Source: an uncultured Clostridia bacterium
Lineage (GTDB): Bacteria > Bacillota > Clostridia > RUG12999
Assembly (NCBI GenBank): GCA_934792465.1
Contig: CAKVOK010000001.1
Span: forward strand, 37,144-101,143
Reading direction: 5' to 3'
DNA: 64,000 nt
Position 1 is the stretch's first letter; each line of letters begins with the position of its first letter. Under the pieces are notes generated by a model, which was not told where the DNA came from, did not search any database, and saw only the letters and a list, made by a program, of their open reading frames with translations. Below, piece by piece: positions 28,667-64,000 of this stretch. The translations under genes were made by a program, and so were the position numbers.

Positions 28667-29350
28667 ATGATAAAATACAGTGATTATCAGATTAAGGACG
28701 GAGTTTTGGAAACTGACGAGGACATAATGTGGAGCATAACCTATAAATTCAATGCGGAAGACCGTGAATCGCCGAGAGTATTGCTGATAGGCGATTCGAT
28801 ATGCAATGCGTATCATGCGGCGGTGCGTGAACGGACGGGCACAAGGGTAAATATATCGTTTTGGGCAGGCTCCAAATGCATAACTCACAGAGATTATTTA
28901 AGGGAACTTGATTATATTCTCGACACGAATCCGTGCGAACTTATTCTCTTTAACAACGGATTGCACAGTCTTGGTACGGATACAAAAAACTGGGAAAAAG
29001 CATATAGGGCGGTTATGAAATATCTTGCAGATAAAATGCCCGACACAAAGCTTGCGGCAGTGTTGAGTACACCGCTTAAGGATGCGGAGCTTACGGAACG
29101 TTCAAAACGGCTTAATGAGATAGTAAAGAGAGTGTCTGCTGAAAATAATACACCGGTTTTGGATTTATTTACTCCGATGGATAAGCTTGACAGGAATACA
29201 TATTGGTCGGATTGTTATCATTTTAAAGCAGATGCAATAAATATGCAGGCAGATTTGATTTCGGAATATATTTTCGGTATGCTGCCGGACTGCAAAAAAG
29301 AAGTTGTGCAGAAATCAACGCTGACGGGACCGGACGGTTCGTTGAAATAA
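28667..29350 (+). CDS. SGNH/GDSL hydrolase family protein
   Basis: LLIGDSICNAYH block I and …DCYHF… C-terminal block. Confidence 0.7.
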   Translation: MIKYSDYQIKDGVLETDEDIMWSITYKFNAEDRESPRVLLIGDSICNAYHAAVRERTGTRVNISFWAGSKCITHRDYLRELDYILDTNPCELILFNNGLHSLGTDTKNWEKAYRAVMKYLADKMPDTKLAAVLSTPLKDAELTERSKRLNEIVKRVSAENNTPVLDLFTPMDKLDRNTYWSDCYHFKADAINMQADLISEYIFGMLPDCKKEVVQKSTLTGPDGSLK

Positions 29351-40049: not shown

Positions 40050-40176
40050 TTGATACAAGTAAGGGAGTTGCGGCAAAATGCTTTCATTTTACCGCAGCTC
40101 CTTGCGGAGTTTTTGAAAAACAGTGCAGAACTTATAAAAATAATTTTGCCGTATATACGGCGGAACGGAGAAATTT

Positions 40177-47905: not shown

Positions 47906-48334
47906 ATGAAAAAACAGTTTTTGGCAGGACTTGCAGCGGGTCTGGCGATTATAGCAGTGTGCGCCATTGTGGTTCTTGCCACACCGGGTGATGAGGATAA
48001 CCCGTTGATTTCAAAGGCATATCTTGAAAATAATTTCTTTACAACGGTTAAGGAATATGTTTCTTCAAAAACAGAATTTCAGGTTGTTTCCGTTGAAAAG
48101 GGAAAATCTCTTATCGGCAGTGCCGGCTGCGAGCTGATACTGCGACAGGGAAGCGGAAAAATTATAGCCACGGAAAAAGGCGGACTTGCAGATACGACGG
48201 CGGGCGGCGACTTGGCAAACGGCACGAAAATGCCGTCGAACCATTTGCTTATTGTTCCGGTCGGTGACGGCAGAGGGTTTACGGCTTCGGAAAACGTGCT
48301 TGTAATGGTTAAAGGCGGATATGAAATAAAATAA
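47906..48334 (+). CDS. Hypothetical membrane-anchored protein (N-terminal TM, 142 aa)
   Basis: ORF with GGAGG RBS. No family recognised. Confidence 0.4.
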   Translation: MKKQFLAGLAAGLAIIAVCAIVVLATPGDEDNPLISKAYLENNFFTTVKEYVSSKTEFQVVSVEKGKSLIGSAGCELILRQGSGKIIATEKGGLADTTAGGDLANGTKMPSNHLLIVPVGDGRGFTASENVLVMVKGGYEIK

Positions 48335-54630: not shown

Positions 54631-55574
54631 AGAGCTATATAATAGATAAAAATAACAACGGTGTTCGCCTGGATAAGTTTGTGCTCGGTGTCTGCAAGAG
54701 TTTGCCGGGATCTATGGTGTATAAATACATACGCAAAAAGAGGATTAAGGTAAACGGCAAAAAGCAGGAAGCTTCATATAGGCTTATTTCCGGAGATAAA
54801 GTCGAGCTGTATATTAATGATGAATTTTTTGAAAAACAGAATGAGGACACGGCATTTTTAAGTGTGCGTGCCACACCGGATATTATTTATGAAGATTCGA
54901 ATATTATAATTGTAAATAAGCCTGCCGGGCTTGTTGTTCATACGGACGACGGCGGAGAAATTGTAAACACGCTGATTTCTTATATAAAAAAATATCTTTA
55001 CGATAAGGGTGAATATAAGCTTTCGGACAATTTTGTGCCGTCACTCTGCAATCGTATAGACAGAAATACGTGCGGACTTGTCATTGCGGCAAAAAACGCT
55101 GCGGCTTTAAGAGTGATGAACCAAAAGATTAAAGACAGGGAAATAAAAAAATTTTATTACTGCGTGGTAAAAGGCATTCCCGAACCGGAGGAAGCCGTGA
55201 AAAAAGCATACATCGTGAAAGATGAAGAGAAAAAAGAAGTCAAGGTATACGGCACGCCGAGAGACGGGGCGAAAACTGCGCTCACGAAATATAAAGTGCT
55301 GAAAAAAGGCAGTGTTTCAAGCCTCGTAGAGGTGGAACTGCTTACGGGAAGAACGCATCAGATACGTGCGCATTTCGCCTATATGGGTCATCCGCTTGCC
55401 GGTGACGGCAAATACGGCGAACGTGAGTTCAACCGTATAATGGGCAGAAAATATCAGGCACTTTGCGCATACAAGCTGAAATTCGATTTTACAACGGACG
55501 GCGGTGTTCTCGAATATCTTAACGGAAAAACAGTTGCAATTCCGGAGGAAGAAGCGGAACGGCTGATAACTTAG
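54627..55574 (+). CDS. RluA-family pseudouridine synthase
   Basis: N-terminal S4-like region plus catalytic …NRIDRNTCGLVIAAKN… and …GRTHQIRAH… motifs. Confidence 0.85.
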   Translation: MKSYIIDKNNNGVRLDKFVLGVCKSLPGSMVYKYIRKKRIKVNGKKQEASYRLISGDKVELYINDEFFEKQNEDTAFLSVRATPDIIYEDSNIIIVNKPAGLVVHTDDGGEIVNTLISYIKKYLYDKGEYKLSDNFVPSLCNRIDRNTCGLVIAAKNAAALRVMNQKIKDREIKKFYYCVVKGIPEPEEAVKKAYIVKDEEKKEVKVYGTPRDGAKTALTKYKVLKKGSVSSLVEVELLTGRTHQIRAHFAYMGHPLAGDGKYGEREFNRIMGRKYQALCAYKLKFDFTTDGGVLEYLNGKTVAIPEEEAERLIT

Positions 55575-55719
55575 GATTTGTGATTGTGGCATTTGCACTC
55601 TTTTTTGATATATGACAACAGCTTATTTGTGAAAATATCTGATTGACAAATAAAATTTAATATGATACAATATACAGTGTAAGAAATACCGCAGAAAATT
55701 GCGGTAAAAACAGAAAAAA

Positions 55720-55840
55720 CATTTTTGTGACTGACGGATAAGCGGAGTACCGCAGAGGAGCAAAAATGAATATTTTAAATGTCGACCGTCTGGGCAGTTC
55801 TGCTTTTTATGAGGGCAGGGCTGCCCTTATATTTTGCAGT
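55720..55840 (+). ncRNA. Candidate ZTP (pfl-motif) riboswitch with a terminator-like expression platform, leading the pur operon.
   Basis: 5' sub-domain …UGACUGACGG-AUAA-GCGGAGUACCGC-AGAGGAGC… and 3' sub-domain …CGACCGUCUGGGCA… match the pfl consensus I recall (…GACUGGCG…P2…GGGAGC… / …CCGCCUGGGCA…). The pseudoknot pair GGCG/CGCC is replaced by GACG/CGUC, a compensatory change. It is followed by a GAGGGCAG-gg-CTGCCCTT hairpin and then UAUAUUUU. Confidence 0.55.
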
Positions 55841-55905
55841 ATTCTTATCATTAATTACCCTGCGGATAAGAAGTATTTATATTTATGCCGTGCAGGGAGG
55901 CGGAA

Positions 55906-56403
55906 ATGGAGTTCATTATGAAAAAAGTTGCGGTTATAATGGGCAGCGACAGCGACTTGCCCGTAGTTGAAAAAGCGATTGACGTTTTAAAGGAGTTTGA
56001 GATTCCTTTTGAAGTGCATATTTATTCGGCACACAGAACGCCGGTTCAGGCAAGAGATTTTGCACTTAATGCAAGAAAAAACGGATTCGGTGTGATTATT
56101 GCGGCAGCGGGCATGGCGGCACACCTTGCCGGAGCATTTGCCGCAAACACAACGCTTCCGGTAATCGGAATACCTGTGAAATCAAGCTTTGACGGAATGG
56201 ACGCACTGCTTTCCACGGTGCAGATGCCGAGCGGCATACCGGTTGCTTCCGTAGCTGTGAACGGAGCAAAAAATGCGGCATATCTTGCCGCCGAAATACT
56301 TGCGGTGCAGGATTCGGTGCTTGCGGAAAAGCTTGAAAACACAAGAAAACAGGCAGAAGAAAGCGTACTTAAAAAAGATAAAGAAATTTCCGAAAAATTC
56401 TGA
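55906..56403 (+). CDS. purE: 5-(carboxyamino)imidazole ribonucleotide mutase
   Basis: …[16 protein letters not shown]… and …[10 protein letters not shown]… PurE motifs. GGGAGG RBS 5 nt before the ATG at 55906. Confidence 0.9.
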
Positions 56404-56451
56404 TGTTTGAATATAAATTACCATGCCGTTTCGGCAGAAAGGATGTTAATT

Positions 56452-57162
56452 ATGGAAAAGACAACGCAAATGTATGAGGGCAAGGCAAAAAAAGTTTTTG
56501 CAACAACAGACCCGGAGTGCTGCATAGTATCGTACAAAGATGATGCTACGGCGCTTAATGGGAAGAAAAAAGGTACGATACTGGGAAAAGGCGCAATCAA
56601 CAACCGTGTTACGAATTTTCTTATGCAGCTGCTGGAAAAAAACGGAATACCTACGCATTTTGTAAAAGAGCTTAACGACAGAGAAACTGTTGTAAAAAAA
56701 GTGGAAATAGTACCTCTCGAAGTTATTGTGAGAAATATTGCGGCGGGCTCCCTCGCAAAACGTCTGGGACTTGAAGAGGGCGTTAAAATGAAATCCACAG
56801 TTCTTGAATTTTGCTATAAAAACGATGAACTGGACGATCCTATGGTAAATGAATACCATATATTAGCTATGGGCTTCTGCACAAAAGAAGACCTCGACCT
56901 TATATCCGAGTATTCTCTTAAAATAAATAAAATATTGTCCGAATATTTGAAAGAAGCAAATATAGAGCTTATAGATTTCAAATTGGAATTCGGAAAGACG
57001 TCGGACGGAAAGCTTGTTCTTGCGGATGAAATTTCTCCGGATACGTGCCGTTTCTGGGATATGACAACGCATGAAAAACTTGATAAAGACCGTTTCAGAA
57101 GAGATATGGGCGGAGTGGAAGATGCATATCAGGAGATTTTAAAGCGTTTATTGGGTGAATAA
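56452..57162 (+). CDS. purC: Phosphoribosylaminoimidazole-succinocarboxamide synthase
   Basis: [16 protein letters not shown]… SAICAR synthetase N-terminus, 236 aa. Confidence 0.9.
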
Positions 57163-57255
57163 AAAATGTGGCTCGGAGCTGCGGCGATTTGCTGCGGCTT
57201 CGGGTAGGATTCACTTATAATAAACGCTGTTTTTCGCTAAAAAGGAGTTTGAATA

Positions 57256-58689
57256 ATGAGAAAAATAAATGAAGAATGCGGAGTATTCGGAATATATGCA
57301 AATGAAAAAACAGATGTTGCATCACCGGTGTATTACGGACTTTTCGCATTGCAGCACAGAGGGCAGGAAAGCTGCGGAATCGTAGTGAATGATGACGGTT
57401 TGTTCCATCCGTACAAAGATACCGGACTTGTCAACGATGTTTTTACACCGGCAGTAATGGAAAGTCTCGGCGAGGGGAATATCGCAGTAGGTCATGTGAG
57501 ATACGGTACAACGGGTACGGACGGCAGACTTAACGCACAGCCGATAGTTGTAAATCATATAAAAGGAAGAATGGCGCTTGCACATAACGGAAATCTGGTT
57601 AATTCATACGAACTCAGACGTGAACTTGAAATGGAAGGTTCTATTTTCCACACGACAAGCGACACGGAGGTTATCTCATATTTCGTAACGAAAGAAAGAA
57701 TTAATGCACCGTCCATAGAAGAGGCCGTAAATCGTGCAATGAACAAAATCAAAGGTGCATACTCGCTTGTTATAATGTCGCCGTCGAAGCTCATTGCGGT
57801 GAGAGATGAAAACGGTTTCAGACCTCTTTGCTACGGGAAACGCAAGGACGGCAGCTATGTTGTGGCTTCCGAAACCTGCGCACTCGATGCCGTTGGTGCG
57901 GAATATATACGCGACGTTGAGCCGGGTGAAATCGTTATTTTCGATAAAGACGGAGTAAGATTTATAAAAGACCATTGCGGAAAGGCAAAATACGCAAGAT
58001 GTATATTTGAATATATTTATTTTGCACGCCCGGATTCGTGCATAGACGGAGTAAGCGTTCATGACGCAAGGCTTAAAGCGGGTGCCTGTCTGGCTATGGA
58101 ACACCCGGTTCATGCGGACGTTGTTGTGGGAGTTCCGGATTCGGGAATAGACGCAGCAATAGGATATTCCCGACAGTCCGGCATACCTTACGGTGTTGGA
58201 TTTATAAAAAATAAGTATATAGGAAGAACGTTTATTTCTCCGGGACAGAAATCACGTGAGGATAAAGTTAAAATCAAGCTTAATACAATATCTGAAACGA
58301 TTAAGGGGAAACGTGTCGTGCTGGTTGACGACTCCATAGTAAGGGGAACAACCTGTGCGAGAATAGTTAAGCTTCTGCGTGAAGCAGGGGCAACAGAAGT
58401 GCATATGAGAGTTTCGGCACCGCCGTTTTTGAATCCGTGTTACTACGGAACGGATATAGATTCGAGAGATTCTCTTATTGCCTGCAATCATACGATTGAT
58501 GAAATACGTGATATAATAGGTGTTGATACATTGGGATACCTTAATGTCGAACATCTTTCGATGCTTATCGGGACGGAAAAAGGCTGCGGATATTGCGATG
58601 CTTGTTTCAGCAACGATTATCCGACACAGATCCCCGAAGATAGAGGAAAGAGCAGATTTGAACATAAAATAAGCCAAAGAGGAGAATGA
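57256..58689 (+). CDS. purF: Amidophosphoribosyltransferase
   Basis: N-terminal CGVFGI (Ntn Cys), PRT-type motif, and a C-terminal Cys cluster (…CGYCDAC…). Confidence 0.9.
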
Positions 58690-58691
58690 AT

Positions 58692-59729
58692 ATGAAAAGC
58701 TTCAGCGAAAGTTATAAAGATGCAGGTGTGGATATTACGGCAGGATACAAAGCAGTTGAACTGATGAAGCAGCACATTGCGAAAACGGTAACAAAAGGTG
58801 TTCTCTCGGGGATAGGGAATTTCGGCGGACTTTTTGAACTTGACATGACAGGCATAACGAAACCTGTACTTGTAAGCGGCACGGACGGTGTGGGAACAAA
58901 GCTGAAAATGGCATTTTTGATGGACAAACATGACACGGTAGGCATAGACTGCGTTGCAATGTGTGTGAACGACATCATCTGCTGCGGAGCAAAGCCGCTC
59001 TTGTTCCTGGATTATATAGCAACGGGAAAAAACTATCCCGAAAAGATTGCCGAAATAGTGAAAGGAGTTTCGGAGGGCTGCGTGCAGTCCGGAAGTGCTC
59101 TCATAGGCGGTGAAACAGCCGAAATGCCGGGATTTTATCCGGAGGACGAATACGACCTTGCCGGCTTCTCTGTCGGTATAGTGGATAAAGATAAGATACT
59201 CGATAATTCAACGGTGAAAGCCGGCGACGTTATAATCGCCCTGCCGTCAAGCGGTGTTCATTCAAACGGATTTTCTCTTGTAAGAAAAGTATTTGATGTT
59301 GAAAACAGTGACATAAAATCGCCTGTTGCAGAGCTTGGCGGAAAGTCAATCGGCGAAACGCTTTTAACTCCTACGAAGATATATGTAAAGCCGATGCTTG
59401 CGTTGTTTGATGAAATTACGGTAAAAGCCGTATCTCATATAACGGGCGGCGGTTTTTACGAGAATATGCCGAGAAGTATTCCGAACGGCTTCGGTGCAAA
59501 GATAGAAAAATCGGCAGTTAAAGTTCTTCCGATATTCGACCTTATCGCAAAATGCGGCGGGATTCCGGAAAGAGATATGTTCAATACGTTTAATATGGGC
59601 GTGGGAATGAGCATTATTGCAGATAAAAACGATGCCGACCGTGCACTTGAAATCTTAAAAGCAAACGGAGAGAATGCATATATAATCGGTGAAATTGTAA
59701 AGTCGGACGAGGGTGTTGAGATATGCTGA
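58692..59729 (+). CDS. purM: Phosphoribosylformylglycinamidine cyclo-ligase (AIR synthetase)
   Basis: …SYKDAGVDI… and …[11 protein letters not shown]… PurM motifs. Confidence 0.9.
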
Positions 59730-60337
59730 GGGCGAAAATAGCGGTTTTTGTATCGGGCGGCGGCACAAACCTGCAGGCACTTATAGATGCGGAGAAAAGC
59801 GGCATAATAAAAAGCGGAGAAATCACGCTTGTTATATCGAACAAAGACGGTGTTTATGCGCTTGAAAGAGCCGAAACGGCAGGGATAAAAAATGTAAGCG
59901 TAAATAAGAAATCATGCACTTCGCAGCAAGAATTTGAAGAAAAAATTATTGCGATTCTCGAAGAAAACAAAATTGACGTAATCGTCCTTGCCGGATTTTT
60001 AAGTATCTTAAGCAGCGATTTTACAAAGAAATATAGAAACCGTATAATAAACGTTCACCCGTCGCTGATACCGTCTTTCTGCGGAAAAGGCTACTACGGA
60101 TTGAAGGTTCATGAAGCAGCACTGAATTACGGTGTAAAGGTTACGGGAGCAACGGTGCATTTTGTGAACGAAATTCCGGACGGCGGAAAGATAATAAAGC
60201 AAAAAGCGGTTTATATAAAGGAAAACGATACGCCCGAAATACTTCAAAAGCGTGTTATGGAGGAAGCGGAATGGAAAATTTTGCCCGAAGCAACAGAAGA
60301 AGTATGTGCGGATATAATTAAGGAGTTATGGTCATGA
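59723..60337 (+). CDS. purN: Phosphoribosylglycinamide formyltransferase
   Basis: [15 protein letters not shown] and …NVHPSLIP… formyl-transferase motifs. Confidence 0.85.
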
Positions 60338-61047
60338 ATGTATATAAGACAGAAAAAATAGAGAACATCTTAAAACCGAATCCGTATGCCGGCAGAGGCA
60401 TAATAATAGGCAAATCGGAAAATTCGGCAGTTGTTGCATATTTCATAATGGGAAGAAGCGAGAACAGCAGAAACCGTATATTTGAGGAAAAAGGCAGCGA
60501 AGTTATAATATATCCGTATGATGCTTCGAAGGTGGAGGATCCGTCGCTTATAATTTATTCTCCGATTAGGGAATATGAAAATAATCTCATTGTTACAAAC
60601 GGCGACCAGACAGATACAATTTATGATTTTTTAAGCAGCGGAAAGACGTTTGAAGACGCACTGAATACACGTGAGTTTGAACCCGATATACCGAATTTTA
60701 CACCGAGAATAAGCGGTATCCTTACCTTTGCGGACGGAGATTTCACGTACAAAATGAGTATCTTAAAGAGTGCGGATTCTGTAGGCAGTGCTTGCAGCAG
60801 ATATACTTTCGCTTATCCGGCACTGTGCGGAGTGGGGCATTTTATACATACGTATATAACGGACGGAAATCCGATACCGACTTTTTGCGGAGAACCGGAA
60901 AGAGTGGAAATACAGAATGATATAGATGTGTTTACTTCAAATATATGGGAAAGTCTGGATGTCAACAATAAAATTTCGTTGTATGTCAGATATATTGATT
61001 TAAAAACAGGCAAAACGGAAAACAGAATGATAAATAAAAATAAATAA
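60334..61047 (+). CDS. IMP cyclohydrolase (PurO-like, stand-alone)
   Basis: About 237 aa. Pattern …NPYAGRGIIIG… resembles the archaeal-type IMP cyclohydrolase family found in Clostridia. It lies inside the pur operon next to an AICARFT-only purH. Confidence 0.6.
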   Translation: MNVYKTEKIENILKPNPYAGRGIIIGKSENSAVVAYFIMGRSENSRNRIFEEKGSEVIIYPYDASKVEDPSLIIYSPIREYENNLIVTNGDQTDTIYDFLSSGKTFEDALNTREFEPDIPNFTPRISGILTFADGDFTYKMSILKSADSVGSACSRYTFAYPALCGVGHFIHTYITDGNPIPTFCGEPERVEIQNDIDVFTSNIWESLDVNNKISLYVRYIDLKTGKTENRMINKNK

Positions 61048-61059
61048 CGGAGGAGCAGA

Positions 61060-62496
61060 ATGGACACGTCAAAAAGAAAATATATATCACCGTTTTCGAC
61101 AAGATATGCAAGCGATGAAATGCAGTATATTTTTTCGGAAGAATATAAATTCAAAACATGGAGAAAACTCTGGATTGCTCTTGCAAAGGCGGAAAAAGAA
61201 CTCGGACTCGATATAACGGACGAGCAGATTGCGGAGCTTGAAAAGTATAAAGACGATATTAATTTTGAGGTTGCGCAGGAAAGAGAAAAACAGGTTCGTC
61301 ACGATGTTATGAGTCATGTTTACGCATACGGTCGGCAATGCCCGAAAGCGGAGCCAATCATACACCTCGGAGCAACAAGCTGCTATGTCGGCGACAACAC
61401 GGACGTAATTATTATGAGAGAAGCTTCGGAGCTTGTAATAAAAAAAGCGGTACAGGTGCTTAAAAACTTGTCCGAATTTGCAATGAAATATAAAGGTATG
61501 CCATGTCTTGCATATACGCATCTTCAGCCGGCGCAACTGACTACCGTCGGGAAAAGAGCAACTCTTTGGATGTATGAACTGGAGCAGGATATAAAGGAAA
61601 TGCAGCATAGACTTGATGAACTTTTGCTCCTCGGTTCAAAGGGAACAACCGGAACTCAGGCAAGCTTTATAGAGCTTTTTGAGGGTGATGAAGAAAAGGT
61701 TAAGGCTTTGGAAGAAAAAATTGCAAAAAGCATGAACTTCAAAGGCAGCGTTGCCGTTTCGGGTCAGACGTATTCAAGAAAAACAGACGCATATTTCCTT
61801 GCGGTGCTTTCGGGATTTGCACAGAGCGCATATAAATTCTCGAACGATTTAAGATTATTGCAATCGTTTGAAGAAATGGAAGAACCGTTTGAAAAAAATC
61901 AGATCGGTTCGTCTGCAATGCCGTATAAGCGCAATCCTATGAGAAGCGAAAGAATATCTTCACTTGCAAGATATGTTATAATAGATTCGGTAAACCCGGC
62001 AATGACAGCCGGAACGCAGTGGTTTGAAAGAACGCTCGACGACAGCGCAAACAAGAGAATTTCCGTTGCGGAAGCGTTTCTTGCGGTGGACGCAATACTT
62101 AATATTTATATAAATATAAGTGCCGGACTCGTTGTATACGATAAGGTAATACGCCGTCGTGTCATGGAAAAACTGCCGTTTATGGCTACGGAAAATATAA
62201 TGATGGAATCCGTGAAAAAAGGCGGCAATCGCCAGGAACTTCACGAAAGACTTCGTGTACATTCTCATGCGGCTGCGGCAAAGGTAAAGCTGGAGGGCGG
62301 CGCAAACGACCTTATAGAGAGAATAGCGGCGGACGATGCATTTCCGCTTGATGCAGACGAAATAAAAGAGCATCTCAAACCTGAAAAGTATATCGGAAGA
62401 AGCGTTTCGCAGGTGGAAGAATTTCTTGAAAACGAAATCAAACCGATGCTTAATTCTTTGTATAAAGAAGAAGTTGTTTCAAAGCTTAATGTTTAA
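61060..62496 (+). CDS. purB: Adenylosuccinate lyase
   Basis: 478 aa. Fumarate-lyase signature …SSAMPYKRNP…. Confidence 0.9.
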   Translation: MDTSKRKYISPFSTRYASDEMQYIFSEEYKFKTWRKLWIALAKAEKELGLDITDEQIAELEKYKDDINFEVAQEREKQVRHDVMSHVYAYGRQCPKAEPIIHLGATSCYVGDNTDVIIMREASELVIKKAVQVLKNLSEFAMKYKGMPCLAYTHLQPAQLTTVGKRATLWMYELEQDIKEMQHRLDELLLLGSKGTTGTQASFIELFEGDEEKVKALEEKIAKSMNFKGSVAVSGQTYSRKTDAYFLAVLSGFAQSAYKFSNDLRLLQSFEEMEEPFEKNQIGSSAMPYKRNPMRSERISSLARYVIIDSVNPAMTAGTQWFERTLDDSANKRISVAEAFLAVDAILNIYINISAGLVVYDKVIRRRVMEKLPFMATENIMMESVKKGGNRQELHERLRVHSHAAAAKVKLEGGANDLIERIAADDAFPLDADEIKEHLKPEKYIGRSVSQVEEFLENEIKPMLNSLYKEEVVSKLNV

Positions 62497-62507
62497 GGAG
62501 AATGATT

Positions 62508-63692
62508 ATGAAAGAATTTGAACTTAAATACGGATGTAACCCGAATCAGAAACCGGCAAAAATTTATATGGCGGACGGCAGCGACCTTCCGATTGAAATA
62601 TTAAACGGAAAACCGGGGTATATAAATTTTCTTGATGCGTTCAACAGCTGGCAGCTTGTAAAAGAAATAAAAGCCGCTGTCGGAATGGTGTGCGCAGCGT
62701 CTTTTAAGCACGTAAGCCCCACATCGGCGGCAGTTGCCGTGAAAATGGACGACAAGCTGAAAAAAGCCTGCTTTGTTGACGATATTGAAGGACTGGACGA
62801 ATCTCCGCTCGCAACGGCATATGCAAGAGCCAGGGGAACGGACAGAATGTCATCGTTCGGCGATTTTATAGCACTTTCCGATGTGTGCGACGTAACAACG
62901 GCGAATATTATCGCAAGAGAGGTTTCTGACGGCGTTATCGCACCGGGATATGAACCCGAAGCATTGGAAATCCTAAAAGGCAAGAGAAAGGGCACATATA
63001 ATATAATAAAAATAGACGAAAATTATGTTCCTGCCGAAATAGAAGAAAAACAGGTTTACGGCGTAACTTTCAGACAGGGAAGAAATAATTTTGAAATAAA
63101 CGAATCGTTGTTAAACGAAATCGTTACGGAAAATAAAGAGCTTCCCGATACGGCGAAAAGAGATTTGATAATTGCGCTTATTACATTAAAATATACGCAG
63201 TCGAACTCGGTATGCTACGTCCGTGACGGACAGGCGATAGGCGTGGGAGCCGGTCAGCAGTCGAGAATACATTGCACACGTCTTGCCGGAAATAAGGCGG
63301 ATATATGGCATTTAAGACAGCACGACAAGGTTTTGAATCTGCCGTTTAAGGAAGAAATAAAACGTGCCGAACGCGATAACGCTATAGACGTCTATATATC
63401 GGAGGATTGCGAAGATGTACTTGCAGACGGAATATGGCAGACATTGTTTACGAGAAAGCCGGAACCGTTTACGAAAGAAGAACAAAAAGCATATCTTAAA
63501 ACAATATCCGGTGTTGCAATAGGCTCGGACGCATTTTTCCCTTTTGGCGACAATATAGACAGAGCGGCGAAAAGCGGCGTCACATATGTTGCGCAGCCGG
63601 GCGGTTCGATACGTGACGAAAACGTAATTGAAGCCTGCAATAAATACGGTATGGTAATGGCATTTACTCACATGAGATTATTCCATCATTAA
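62508..63692 (+). CDS. purH: Phosphoribosylaminoimidazolecarboxamide formyltransferase (AICARFT domain only)
   Basis: About 394 aa AICARFT-like domain without the MGS/IMPCH N-domain. AAGGAGA RBS 7 nt before the ATG at 62508. Confidence 0.7.
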   Translation: MKEFELKYGCNPNQKPAKIYMADGSDLPIEILNGKPGYINFLDAFNSWQLVKEIKAAVGMVCAASFKHVSPTSAAVAVKMDDKLKKACFVDDIEGLDESPLATAYARARGTDRMSSFGDFIALSDVCDVTTANIIAREVSDGVIAPGYEPEALEILKGKRKGTYNIIKIDENYVPAEIEEKQVYGVTFRQGRNNFEINESLLNEIVTENKELPDTAKRDLIIALITLKYTQSNSVCYVRDGQAIGVGAGQQSRIHCTRLAGNKADIWHLRQHDKVLNLPFKEEIKRAERDNAIDVYISEDCEDVLADGIWQTLFTRKPEPFTKEEQKAYLKTISGVAIGSDAFFPFGDNIDRAAKSGVTYVAQPGGSIRDENVIEACNKYGMVMAFTHMRLFHH

Positions 63693-63711
63693 TATTCGGG
63701 AGGATTTCACT

Positions 63712-64000
63712 ATGAAAATAATGGTAGTAGGCGGAGGCGGACGTGAACACGCCATAATAAAGAAGCTTAAAGAAAATAAAAATGTTGAAAAAATATATGT
63801 GCTGCCGGGAAACGGCGGTATTGCCAACGATGCGGAATGTGTCGATATAGGCGCAAAGGATATTGAGAAAATTACGGCATTTGCAAAGGATAACAACATA
63901 GATTTTGCGGTTGTTGCTCCGGACGACCCGCTTGTTTTGGGAGCGGTGGACGAGCTTAACAAAATCGGTGTGCCATGCTTCGGACCGGACAAAAAAGCGG
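63712..64000 (+). CDS. purD: Phosphoribosylamine--glycine ligase (partial, continues beyond the window)
   Basis: MKIMVVGGGGREHAI… diagnostic N-terminus. GGGAGGA RBS. Confidence 0.85.
   Translation, partial: MKIMVVGGGGREHAIIKKLKENKNVEKIYVLPGNGGIANDAECVDIGAKDIEKITAFAKDNNIDFAVVAPDDPLVLGAVDELNKIGVPCFGPDKKA

Follow-up and report, generated by a model that had tools for sequence, protein, structure and literature searches.

The gene purE opens a nine-gene de novo purine biosynthesis operon in the 64,000-nt stretch of DNA analysed here (hereafter the window), and the question that this locus raises is which element of the purE leader governs the operon, and by what means. Our analysis indicates, with a probability that we put at roughly 0.88, that a ZMP/ZTP aptamer at 55717-55802, transcribed from a promoter at 55643-55671, controls the genes from purE to purD by transcription attenuation and works as an ON switch. 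An uncultured bacterium of a gut-type Clostridia/Oscillospiraceae type appears in this way to switch its whole purine operon on with ZMP/ZTP. The features of the leader and of the operon described below lie on the + strand.

To define the genes downstream of the leader, the region 55906-64000 was annotated with NCBIfam, which identified purE, purC, purF, purM, purN, a purO-like gene, purB and purH, followed by the start of purD, assigned by reading. The operon genes score above the NCBIfam curated cut-offs, except the purO-like gene (62 bits against 150), and purD begins at 63712 with an N-terminus that reads MKIMVVGGGGREHA and runs off the window. The gaps between genes range from -10 to 12 nt, except for 93 nt between purC and purF, and this close packing is consistent with a single transcription unit. 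The sequence-only reading had described a purH-containing operon, which is correct, with purH present as AICAR formyltransferase only: the purH-type gene (62502-63692, 396 aa) reaches 700.9 bits with NF005492 (cut-off 415), which represents the AICAR formyltransferase part alone, and 297 bits with the bifunctional model TIGR00355, under its cut-off. The purO-like gene (60328-61047, 239 aa) shows a weak match to the archaeal-type IMP cyclohydrolase PurO over its N-terminal 115 residues, and the last two steps of IMP synthesis are probably split between these two genes, as judged by their matches. Translation of purE is predicted from an ATG at 55906, with the ribosome-binding site AGGGAGG ending 4 nt before it, at 55895-55901 (55895-55908 together). 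Its product of 165 aa is identical to the protein called on 9 public metagenome contigs, on which the exact locus recurs. The spacer between purC and purF (57163-57255) contains a strong 15-bp hairpin at 57171-57205, GCUCGGAGCUGCGGC-GAUUU-GCUGCGGCUUCGGGU; a 99-nt stretch of this region folds at -30.6 kcal/mol (z = -3.55). The hairpin lacks a following U tract and has no match in Rfam, and it may serve transcript processing or stability within the operon.

A scan of both strands of the window against all 4227 Rfam families (cmscan) gave a single match at or above the gathering score, to RF01750, the ZMP/ZTP riboswitch or pfl motif, at 55717-55802. The match scores 62.4 bits, well above the gathering score of 39, has an E-value of 9.9e-08 over the whole 64 kb and aligns model positions 1-86 of 86, with P1, P2 and P3 all able to form. 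A ZTP (pfl) riboswitch in the purE leader, as proposed from the letters of the sequence, is thereby confirmed. The accompanying statement that no purine (guanine/adenine) riboswitch signature is present also holds: RF00167 is absent from the window at the gathering score, and a permissive rescan of 55300-56100 found no match to it even at E<=10. The same rescan returned PhotoRC-I (12.8 bits) and SSRC8_2 (9.3 bits), sub-threshold matches that we discarded as meaningless, since they mirror only the terminator hairpin.

Several properties define this class of RNA, and 55717-55802 displays a full-length model score, two subdomains joined by a variable linker, the pseudoknot, the pocket nucleotides and a position in the leader of a purine gene. 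All upper-case positions of the RF01750 consensus match, except for one compensated pair (G to A with C to U) and a single C-to-U change in P3. Known pfl RNAs likewise have overlapping terminators and purine or formyl-THF genes downstream (PMC2864571). By family membership we therefore assign 55717-55802 to the ZMP/ZTP riboswitch aptamers, with ligand binding itself predicted. As an ordinary representative of a well-characterised riboswitch class, it would be annotated by any pipeline based on Rfam; the practical value of the assignment is correct annotation, and nothing known about the class is altered by it.

The three sequence elements of the pfl motif quoted in the sequence-only reading were all located where it had placed them, UGACUGACGG at 55728-55737, GCGGAGUACCGC (P2) at 55742-55753 and CGACCGUCUGGGCA at 55783-55796. 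In the RF01750 alignment, P1 is formed by 55719-55728 with 55760-55769 (9 standard pairs) and P1b by 55731-55732 with 55756-55757 (2 pairs); P2 consists of four pairs between GCGG (55742-55745) and CCGC (55750-55753), and a 9-nt linker (55770-55778) leads to the second subdomain. There, P3 pairs UGUC (55780-55783) with GGCA (55793-55796) through U-A, G-C, U-G and C-G, and encloses L3, GACCGUCUG, at 55784-55792. The fifth P3 pair of the model, A55779/G55797, is a mismatch in the window. P3 is thus weak, with four pairs that include one U-G, and this counts against the switch described above.

The J1/2:L3 pseudoknot joins GACGG (55733-55737) to CCGUC, the first part of 55786-55792, by five Watson-Crick pairs: G55733-C55790, A55734-U55789, C55735-G55788, G55736-C55787 and G55737-C55786. 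CCGUC is followed by U55791 and G55792, the nucleotides that the pocket motif CCGYCUGGGC has at these places, and the conserved positions of ACUG...GGA...GGAGC match as well. With the numbering carried over from A26:U94 and G29:C91 of the Clostridium beijerinckii pfl riboswitch, U55791 and G55792 would be the equivalents of U96, which pairs with ZMP, and of G97, which is the floor of the binding pocket (bioRxiv 10.1101/521930).

The window has GACG/CGUC where the Rfam consensus has GGCG/CGCC, and the G-C pair is replaced by A55734-U55789, a compensatory change, just as the sequence-only reading had recognised. The covariation argument drawn from it stands in part: the double change is compensatory with respect to the Rfam consensus, but it is no private event, since the A-U pair occurs in all 28 related purE leaders, 22 of 22 distant and 6 of 6 close ones. 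All 22 distant relatives read CUGACGG...GACCGUCUGG, and the six close relatives are identical there. The native C. beijerinckii pfl riboswitch carries the same pair, A26:U94, and in that RNA breaking pseudoknot pairs abolishes function and restoring them rescues it (bioRxiv 10.1101/521930). On these comparisons the A-U pair is best regarded as a common, clade-wide variant.

As an independent sample, we also scanned metagenome contigs with a pattern degenerate at the variable pair (R in J1/2, Y in L3), which admitted all four combinations. The scan gave 123 matches, 25 of which were validated as ZTP aptamers by R1, a home-made covariance model built from 14 of the relatives. The validated aptamers comprised 20 A-U, 5 G-C and no A/C or G/U combinations; the 98 non-aptamer matches, which are chance hits in GC-rich (coding) DNA, comprised 51 G/C, 7 A/T, 26 A/C and 14 G/T, that is 40 mismatched (Fisher p = 1.9e-5). 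The A-U to G-C ratio of 20:5 is a biased frequency and only the lack of mismatches is informative, because the training sequences of R1 were of low GC content and A-U type; one or more plausible GC-rich aptamers (among them L110) escaped it, and L160 received only 24.6 bits.

In a structural alignment of 54 homologous sequences, the full structure including the pseudoknot was 90.3% paired, a value reached by 0 of 500 shuffles, and 17 pairs had changes on both sides. No shuffle attained the covariation score of this alignment, and partners slid by 1-3 columns were clearly worse. By helix, pairing was 90.9% for P1, 98.6% for P2 and 100% for the three core P3 pairs, figures that are not model-independent, the alignment having been fitted to the model. 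The pseudoknot helix was also 100% paired, with its remaining positions fixed by the scan pattern for the 25 metagenome sequences, and its variable pair was A-U in 49 sequences and G-C in 5.

The distant relatives come from 80 purE loci of other species (L007-L086), mostly Oscillospiraceae and Clostridia MAGs, whose best PurE identity to the window is 78%; no GTDB species representative has a PurE more similar than that. In an Rfam scan, 22 of the 80, about a quarter of the related genomes sampled, had a ZTP aptamer before purE, all with the A-U variant. One locus (L043) has a purine riboswitch before purE, and the other 57 have no riboswitch match adjoining purE within the flanks, irrespective of the place of purE in the operon. 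The regulators before purE vary among related Clostridia, with 22 ZTP aptamers and 1 purine riboswitch in these 80 loci. The only other riboswitch match among them is a SAM riboswitch about 2.2 kb upstream of purE on the opposite strand (L020).

Closer to the window, six relatives with PurE 80-97% identical have aptamers that score 75-85 bits, while the flanking leader sequence diverges. The leader itself is invariant across six public metagenome contigs save for G55820A. These data bear on whether the RF01750 match arose by chance or marks a decayed element that has lost its function. Nothing speaks for such a reading except the weakness of P3 and the imperfect U tract; an E-value of 1e-7 over the window against all families, a leader whose single substitution improves a pair and an aptamer retained amid diverging flanks make it hardly credible.

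A terminator scan and folding place an intrinsic terminator hairpin at 55792-55826, in which 55792-55807 (GGGCAGUUCUGCUUUU) pairs with 55811-55826 (GAGGGCAGGGCUGCCC) to give 16 bp, five of them G-U, around the loop UAU (-26.1 kcal/mol). It is followed by the interrupted U tract UUAUAUUUU at 55827-55835. The 5' arm of this hairpin opens with G55792 of L3 and the 3' strand of P3 (GGGCAG), and P3 and the base of the terminator are therefore mutually exclusive. The interruption of the U tract and the five G-U pairs count against attenuation at this site. The same arrangement was found in 22 of 22 distant relatives, where the predicted terminator runs from the G of L3, or from the 3' strand of P3, to a U tract. 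Since the terminator stem sequences differ widely among these relatives, the overlap geometry has been kept with covariation, as in L027, where P3 is GUC/GAC and the terminator base GGAC/GUCC. The natural variant G55820A, the only polymorphism in the six metagenome copies, turns U55798-G55820 into a U-A pair. When the P3 3' strand was withheld in folding, 21 of the 22 relatives formed only the upper stem, with at most 2 of the last five nucleotides of the 3' arm paired; the hairpin then no longer adjoins the U tract, which is the state expected for antitermination. The overlap of terminator and P3 in the window and in all 22 relatives supports the idea of a terminator/antiterminator switch put forward in the sequence-only reading, although its location of the terminator needs revision.

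That reading had placed a terminator-like hairpin at 55811-55838. A hairpin with the core GGGCA-GGGC-UGCCC does exist at 55812-55827, followed by UUAUAUUUU, and can extend to 55808-55831, but the claimed element is just the 3' half of 55792-55826. Its left arm GGGCAG was said to repeat the 3' end of the aptamer; the left arm of the terminator is in fact the aptamer end itself. The terminator 3' arm does hold a second GGGCAG (55813-55818), a consequence of the many G-U pairs in the upper stem, and this copy only makes the arm self-complementary. Pairing of UAUGA with UUAUA gives the local hairpin a 10-bp form of -14.1 kcal/mol. We compared the competing hairpins by explicit structure energies (ViennaRNA). 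In RNA up to 55826, the upper stem of the long hairpin (55797-55821) has -11.7 kcal/mol against -9.3 for the 6-bp local core, and the minimum-energy fold of RNA ending at this position is the upper stem (-11.9 kcal/mol) with CUGCC(C) free, in the window and in every close relative. By these energies, the 10-bp local form would compete only after the polymerase has released the U tract. The window shares the nested design with relatives as distant as 89% PurE identity, in which the loop reads GGGC, GGAC or GUAC and the stem is kept, and no local alternative hairpin is present in the 22 distant ZTP-purE leaders. On these energies, and on the conservation of the long hairpin in 22 relatives, we rejected 55811-55838 as the functional terminator in favour of 55792-55826.

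The local hairpin nevertheless underlies a rival explanation, namely that the functional terminator is this short element (core 55812-55827, up to 55808-55831), either suppressed sterically by the bound aptamer, in the manner of 'tug-of-war' (TOW) platforms, or constitutive. If 55808-55831 terminated efficiently, termination would be independent of ligand, which is a point against the switch that we favour. Its 10-bp form is stable and adjoins U-rich sequence, close relatives confine substitutions to its loop and keep its stem, and TOW platforms are reported for about 10% of natural ZTP riboswitches, in which the aptamer and terminator do not overlap and the single-stranded spacer is shorter than 5 nt (bioRxiv 10.64898/2026.06.17.733018). 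A hairpin and U tract able to coexist with P3 are just what 55808-55831 offers. However, the spacer from the end of P3 (55796/7) to this hairpin is 11-15 nt, against less than 5 nt in almost all natural TOW riboswitches, which are moreover concentrated in Bacilli (bioRxiv 10.64898/2026.06.17.733018), and the strongest terminator in the window shares 5-6 nt with L3/P3; a TOW platform was rejected on these grounds. The upper stem is more stable than the 6-bp local core and would be the first to form, the overlapping long hairpin is predicted in all 22 distant relatives with no local alternative in any, and G55820A strengthens the long stem. Taken together, these observations make the short hairpin an improbable terminator, and we regard it as a secondary feature.

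A further, rather unlikely reading gives the same hairpin a different use. The expression platform of this lineage might be a three-state device, whose palindromic 3' arm (GGGCAG-NN-CUGCCC) refolds independently of the aptamer. Refolding would follow the decision to terminate or occur while ligand is bound, and the second hairpin would take up part of the U tract. If this were true, the second hairpin could tune leakiness, be a fail-safe terminator or protect the readthrough mRNA.

The attenuation switch itself would work as follows. ZMP is the substrate of PurH and ZTP its triphosphate derivative, and both accumulate when 10-formyl-THF is limiting (bioRxiv 10.1101/521930; PMC2864571; PMC7337938). 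In related RNAs the J1/2:L3 pseudoknot is the antiterminator (PMC7337938), and strand displacement is gated by ligand (bioRxiv 10.1101/521930). In the absence of ligand, the upper terminator stem (55797-55821) would form first; CUGCCC (55821-55826) would then displace the weak 5' strand of P3 and pair with GGGCAG (55792-55797), the 16-bp hairpin would be completed against the U tract, and RNA polymerase would terminate near 55833-55836. ZMP/ZTP would build up when flux through the pathway exceeds the 10-formyl-THF-dependent formylation by PurH. The ligand would stack between P3 and the J1/2:L3 pseudoknot and hold G55792-A55796 within the aptamer; the terminator could then not form its final five or six pairs next to the U tract, with readthrough into purE as the result. 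Such an ON switch would increase PurH and PurN along with the other enzymes of the pathway. PurF is feedback-inhibited by purine nucleotides, and the operon would be shut down when this inhibition lowers ZMP. The net effect would be a flux sensor in place of the guanine OFF switch of the Bacillus subtilis pur operon. Induction of the whole pathway, including the steps before ZMP, is less obviously homeostatic than induction of purH alone, which counts against an ON switch.

Control by the aptamer of purE translation initiation, or of mRNA stability, in place of transcription termination was also considered. GCAGGG (55892-55897), which reaches into the ribosome-binding site, is able to pair with CCCUGC (55859-55864), and in several relatives the ribosome-binding site is just 15-30 nt past the hairpin. 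In the window, by contrast, about 100 nt separate the aptamer from the purE ribosome-binding site downstream, the two have no sequence in common, and 55836-55910 folds no better than shuffled sequence (z = +0.41). A terminator hairpin with its U tract overlaps the aptamer here and in all 22 relatives, and these data together render translational control very unlikely.

Comparison with characterised systems places the window closest to known attenuating ZTP riboswitches. The C. beijerinckii pfl riboswitch, the model RNA studied by Strobel et al., belongs to the same class, with a five-pair pseudoknot that includes an A-U pair and with the conserved U and G (bioRxiv 10.1101/521930). It is a transcriptional ON switch with an intrinsic terminator that competes with P3, and the ON direction would be the same in the window. 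In C. beijerinckii the entire P3 hairpin and the pseudoknot strand make up the 5' arm of the terminator, and strand invasion starts at P3 before it opens the pseudoknot. The window, in contrast, shares only G55792 and the P3 3' strand (5-6 nt), which form the U-tract-proximal base of the terminator, and its 11-bp upper stem consists of non-aptamer sequence that can form whatever the ligand state. The regulated genes also differ, being pfl in C. beijerinckii and a complete pur operon in the window. Because the overlap restricted to the P3 3' strand is common to all 22 distant relatives, it may serve studies of the strand-displacement mechanism.

The ZMP riboswitch of Thermosinus carboxydivorans likewise has the pfl-motif fold with the J1/2:L3 pseudoknot as antiterminator, and a rho-independent terminator arises there, as predicted for the window, by pairing of P3 nucleotides with residues further downstream; unlike in the window, that terminator takes up the whole P3 hairpin and the pseudoknot strand as its 5' arm (PMC7337938). 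The linker and expression-platform sequences of the two RNAs differ, and crystal structures exist for the T. carboxydivorans riboswitch. The guanine riboswitch of B. subtilis (RF00167) resembles the window in standing in the leader of a purE-first operon and in acting by transcription attenuation. Its fold is unrelated and its logic opposite: there, guanine, an end product, turns the pur operon OFF, whereas here the intermediate ZMP is expected to turn it ON.

Transcription of the leader can be accounted for by a sigma-70-type promoter at 55643-55671, with TTGACA and TACAAT separated by a 17-nt spacer and an extended -10 TG (11 of 12 consensus matches). Both hexamers are conserved in the close relatives, and transcription probably starts near 55678. 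Between this predicted start and the aptamer lies a 32-nt insertion (55681-55712), which is found only in the lineage of the window and L207-L209; in L210, L212 and L213, which are without it, the aptamer begins about 14 nt past the -10 hexamer. The insertion contains a 7-bp leader hairpin at 55687-55706, UACCGCA-GAAAAU-UGCGGUA (-10.1 kcal/mol, z = -6.8), identical in L207 and L208, which is probably not part of the switch. The perfect palindrome ACCGCA-N6-TGCGGT in it might stabilise the 5' end as a stem-loop or function as an operator. A PurBox operator was considered and rejected, since the palindrome matches the B. subtilis PurBox consensus poorly, has the wrong spacing and lies in a lineage-specific insertion. 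With up to two mismatches, the palindrome occurs at 9 sites in the window, including 40091-40108, 29071-29088 and 48219-48236, against 2.2 expected, and none of 100 dinucleotide shuffles reaches 9; this excess may be a codon or composition effect.

Two further segments flank the promoter-terminator region. Between the terminator and the purE ribosome-binding site, 55846-55876 contains the inverted repeat UUCUUAUC...GAUAAGAA, which is absent from L210-L213 and is kept in L209 with one extra compensated pair. On the other side, the upstream neighbour of the operon is a gene for an RluA-family pseudouridine synthase that ends at 55574, and about 60 nt upstream of the -35 hexamer (55585-55640) are kept in the close relatives, with the blocks ATTGTGGCATTTGCACTCTTTTTT and CTTATTTGTGAAAATAT. 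The blocks ATTGTGGCATTTGCACTCTTTTTT and TTGCATTTGCAC show no enrichment elsewhere in the window. The segment 55585-55640 is conserved even where the upstream gene encodes an SLH-domain protein and not an RluA-family enzyme, and it may serve as an UP element or bind a transcription factor, in which case the operon would be under control beyond the riboswitch.
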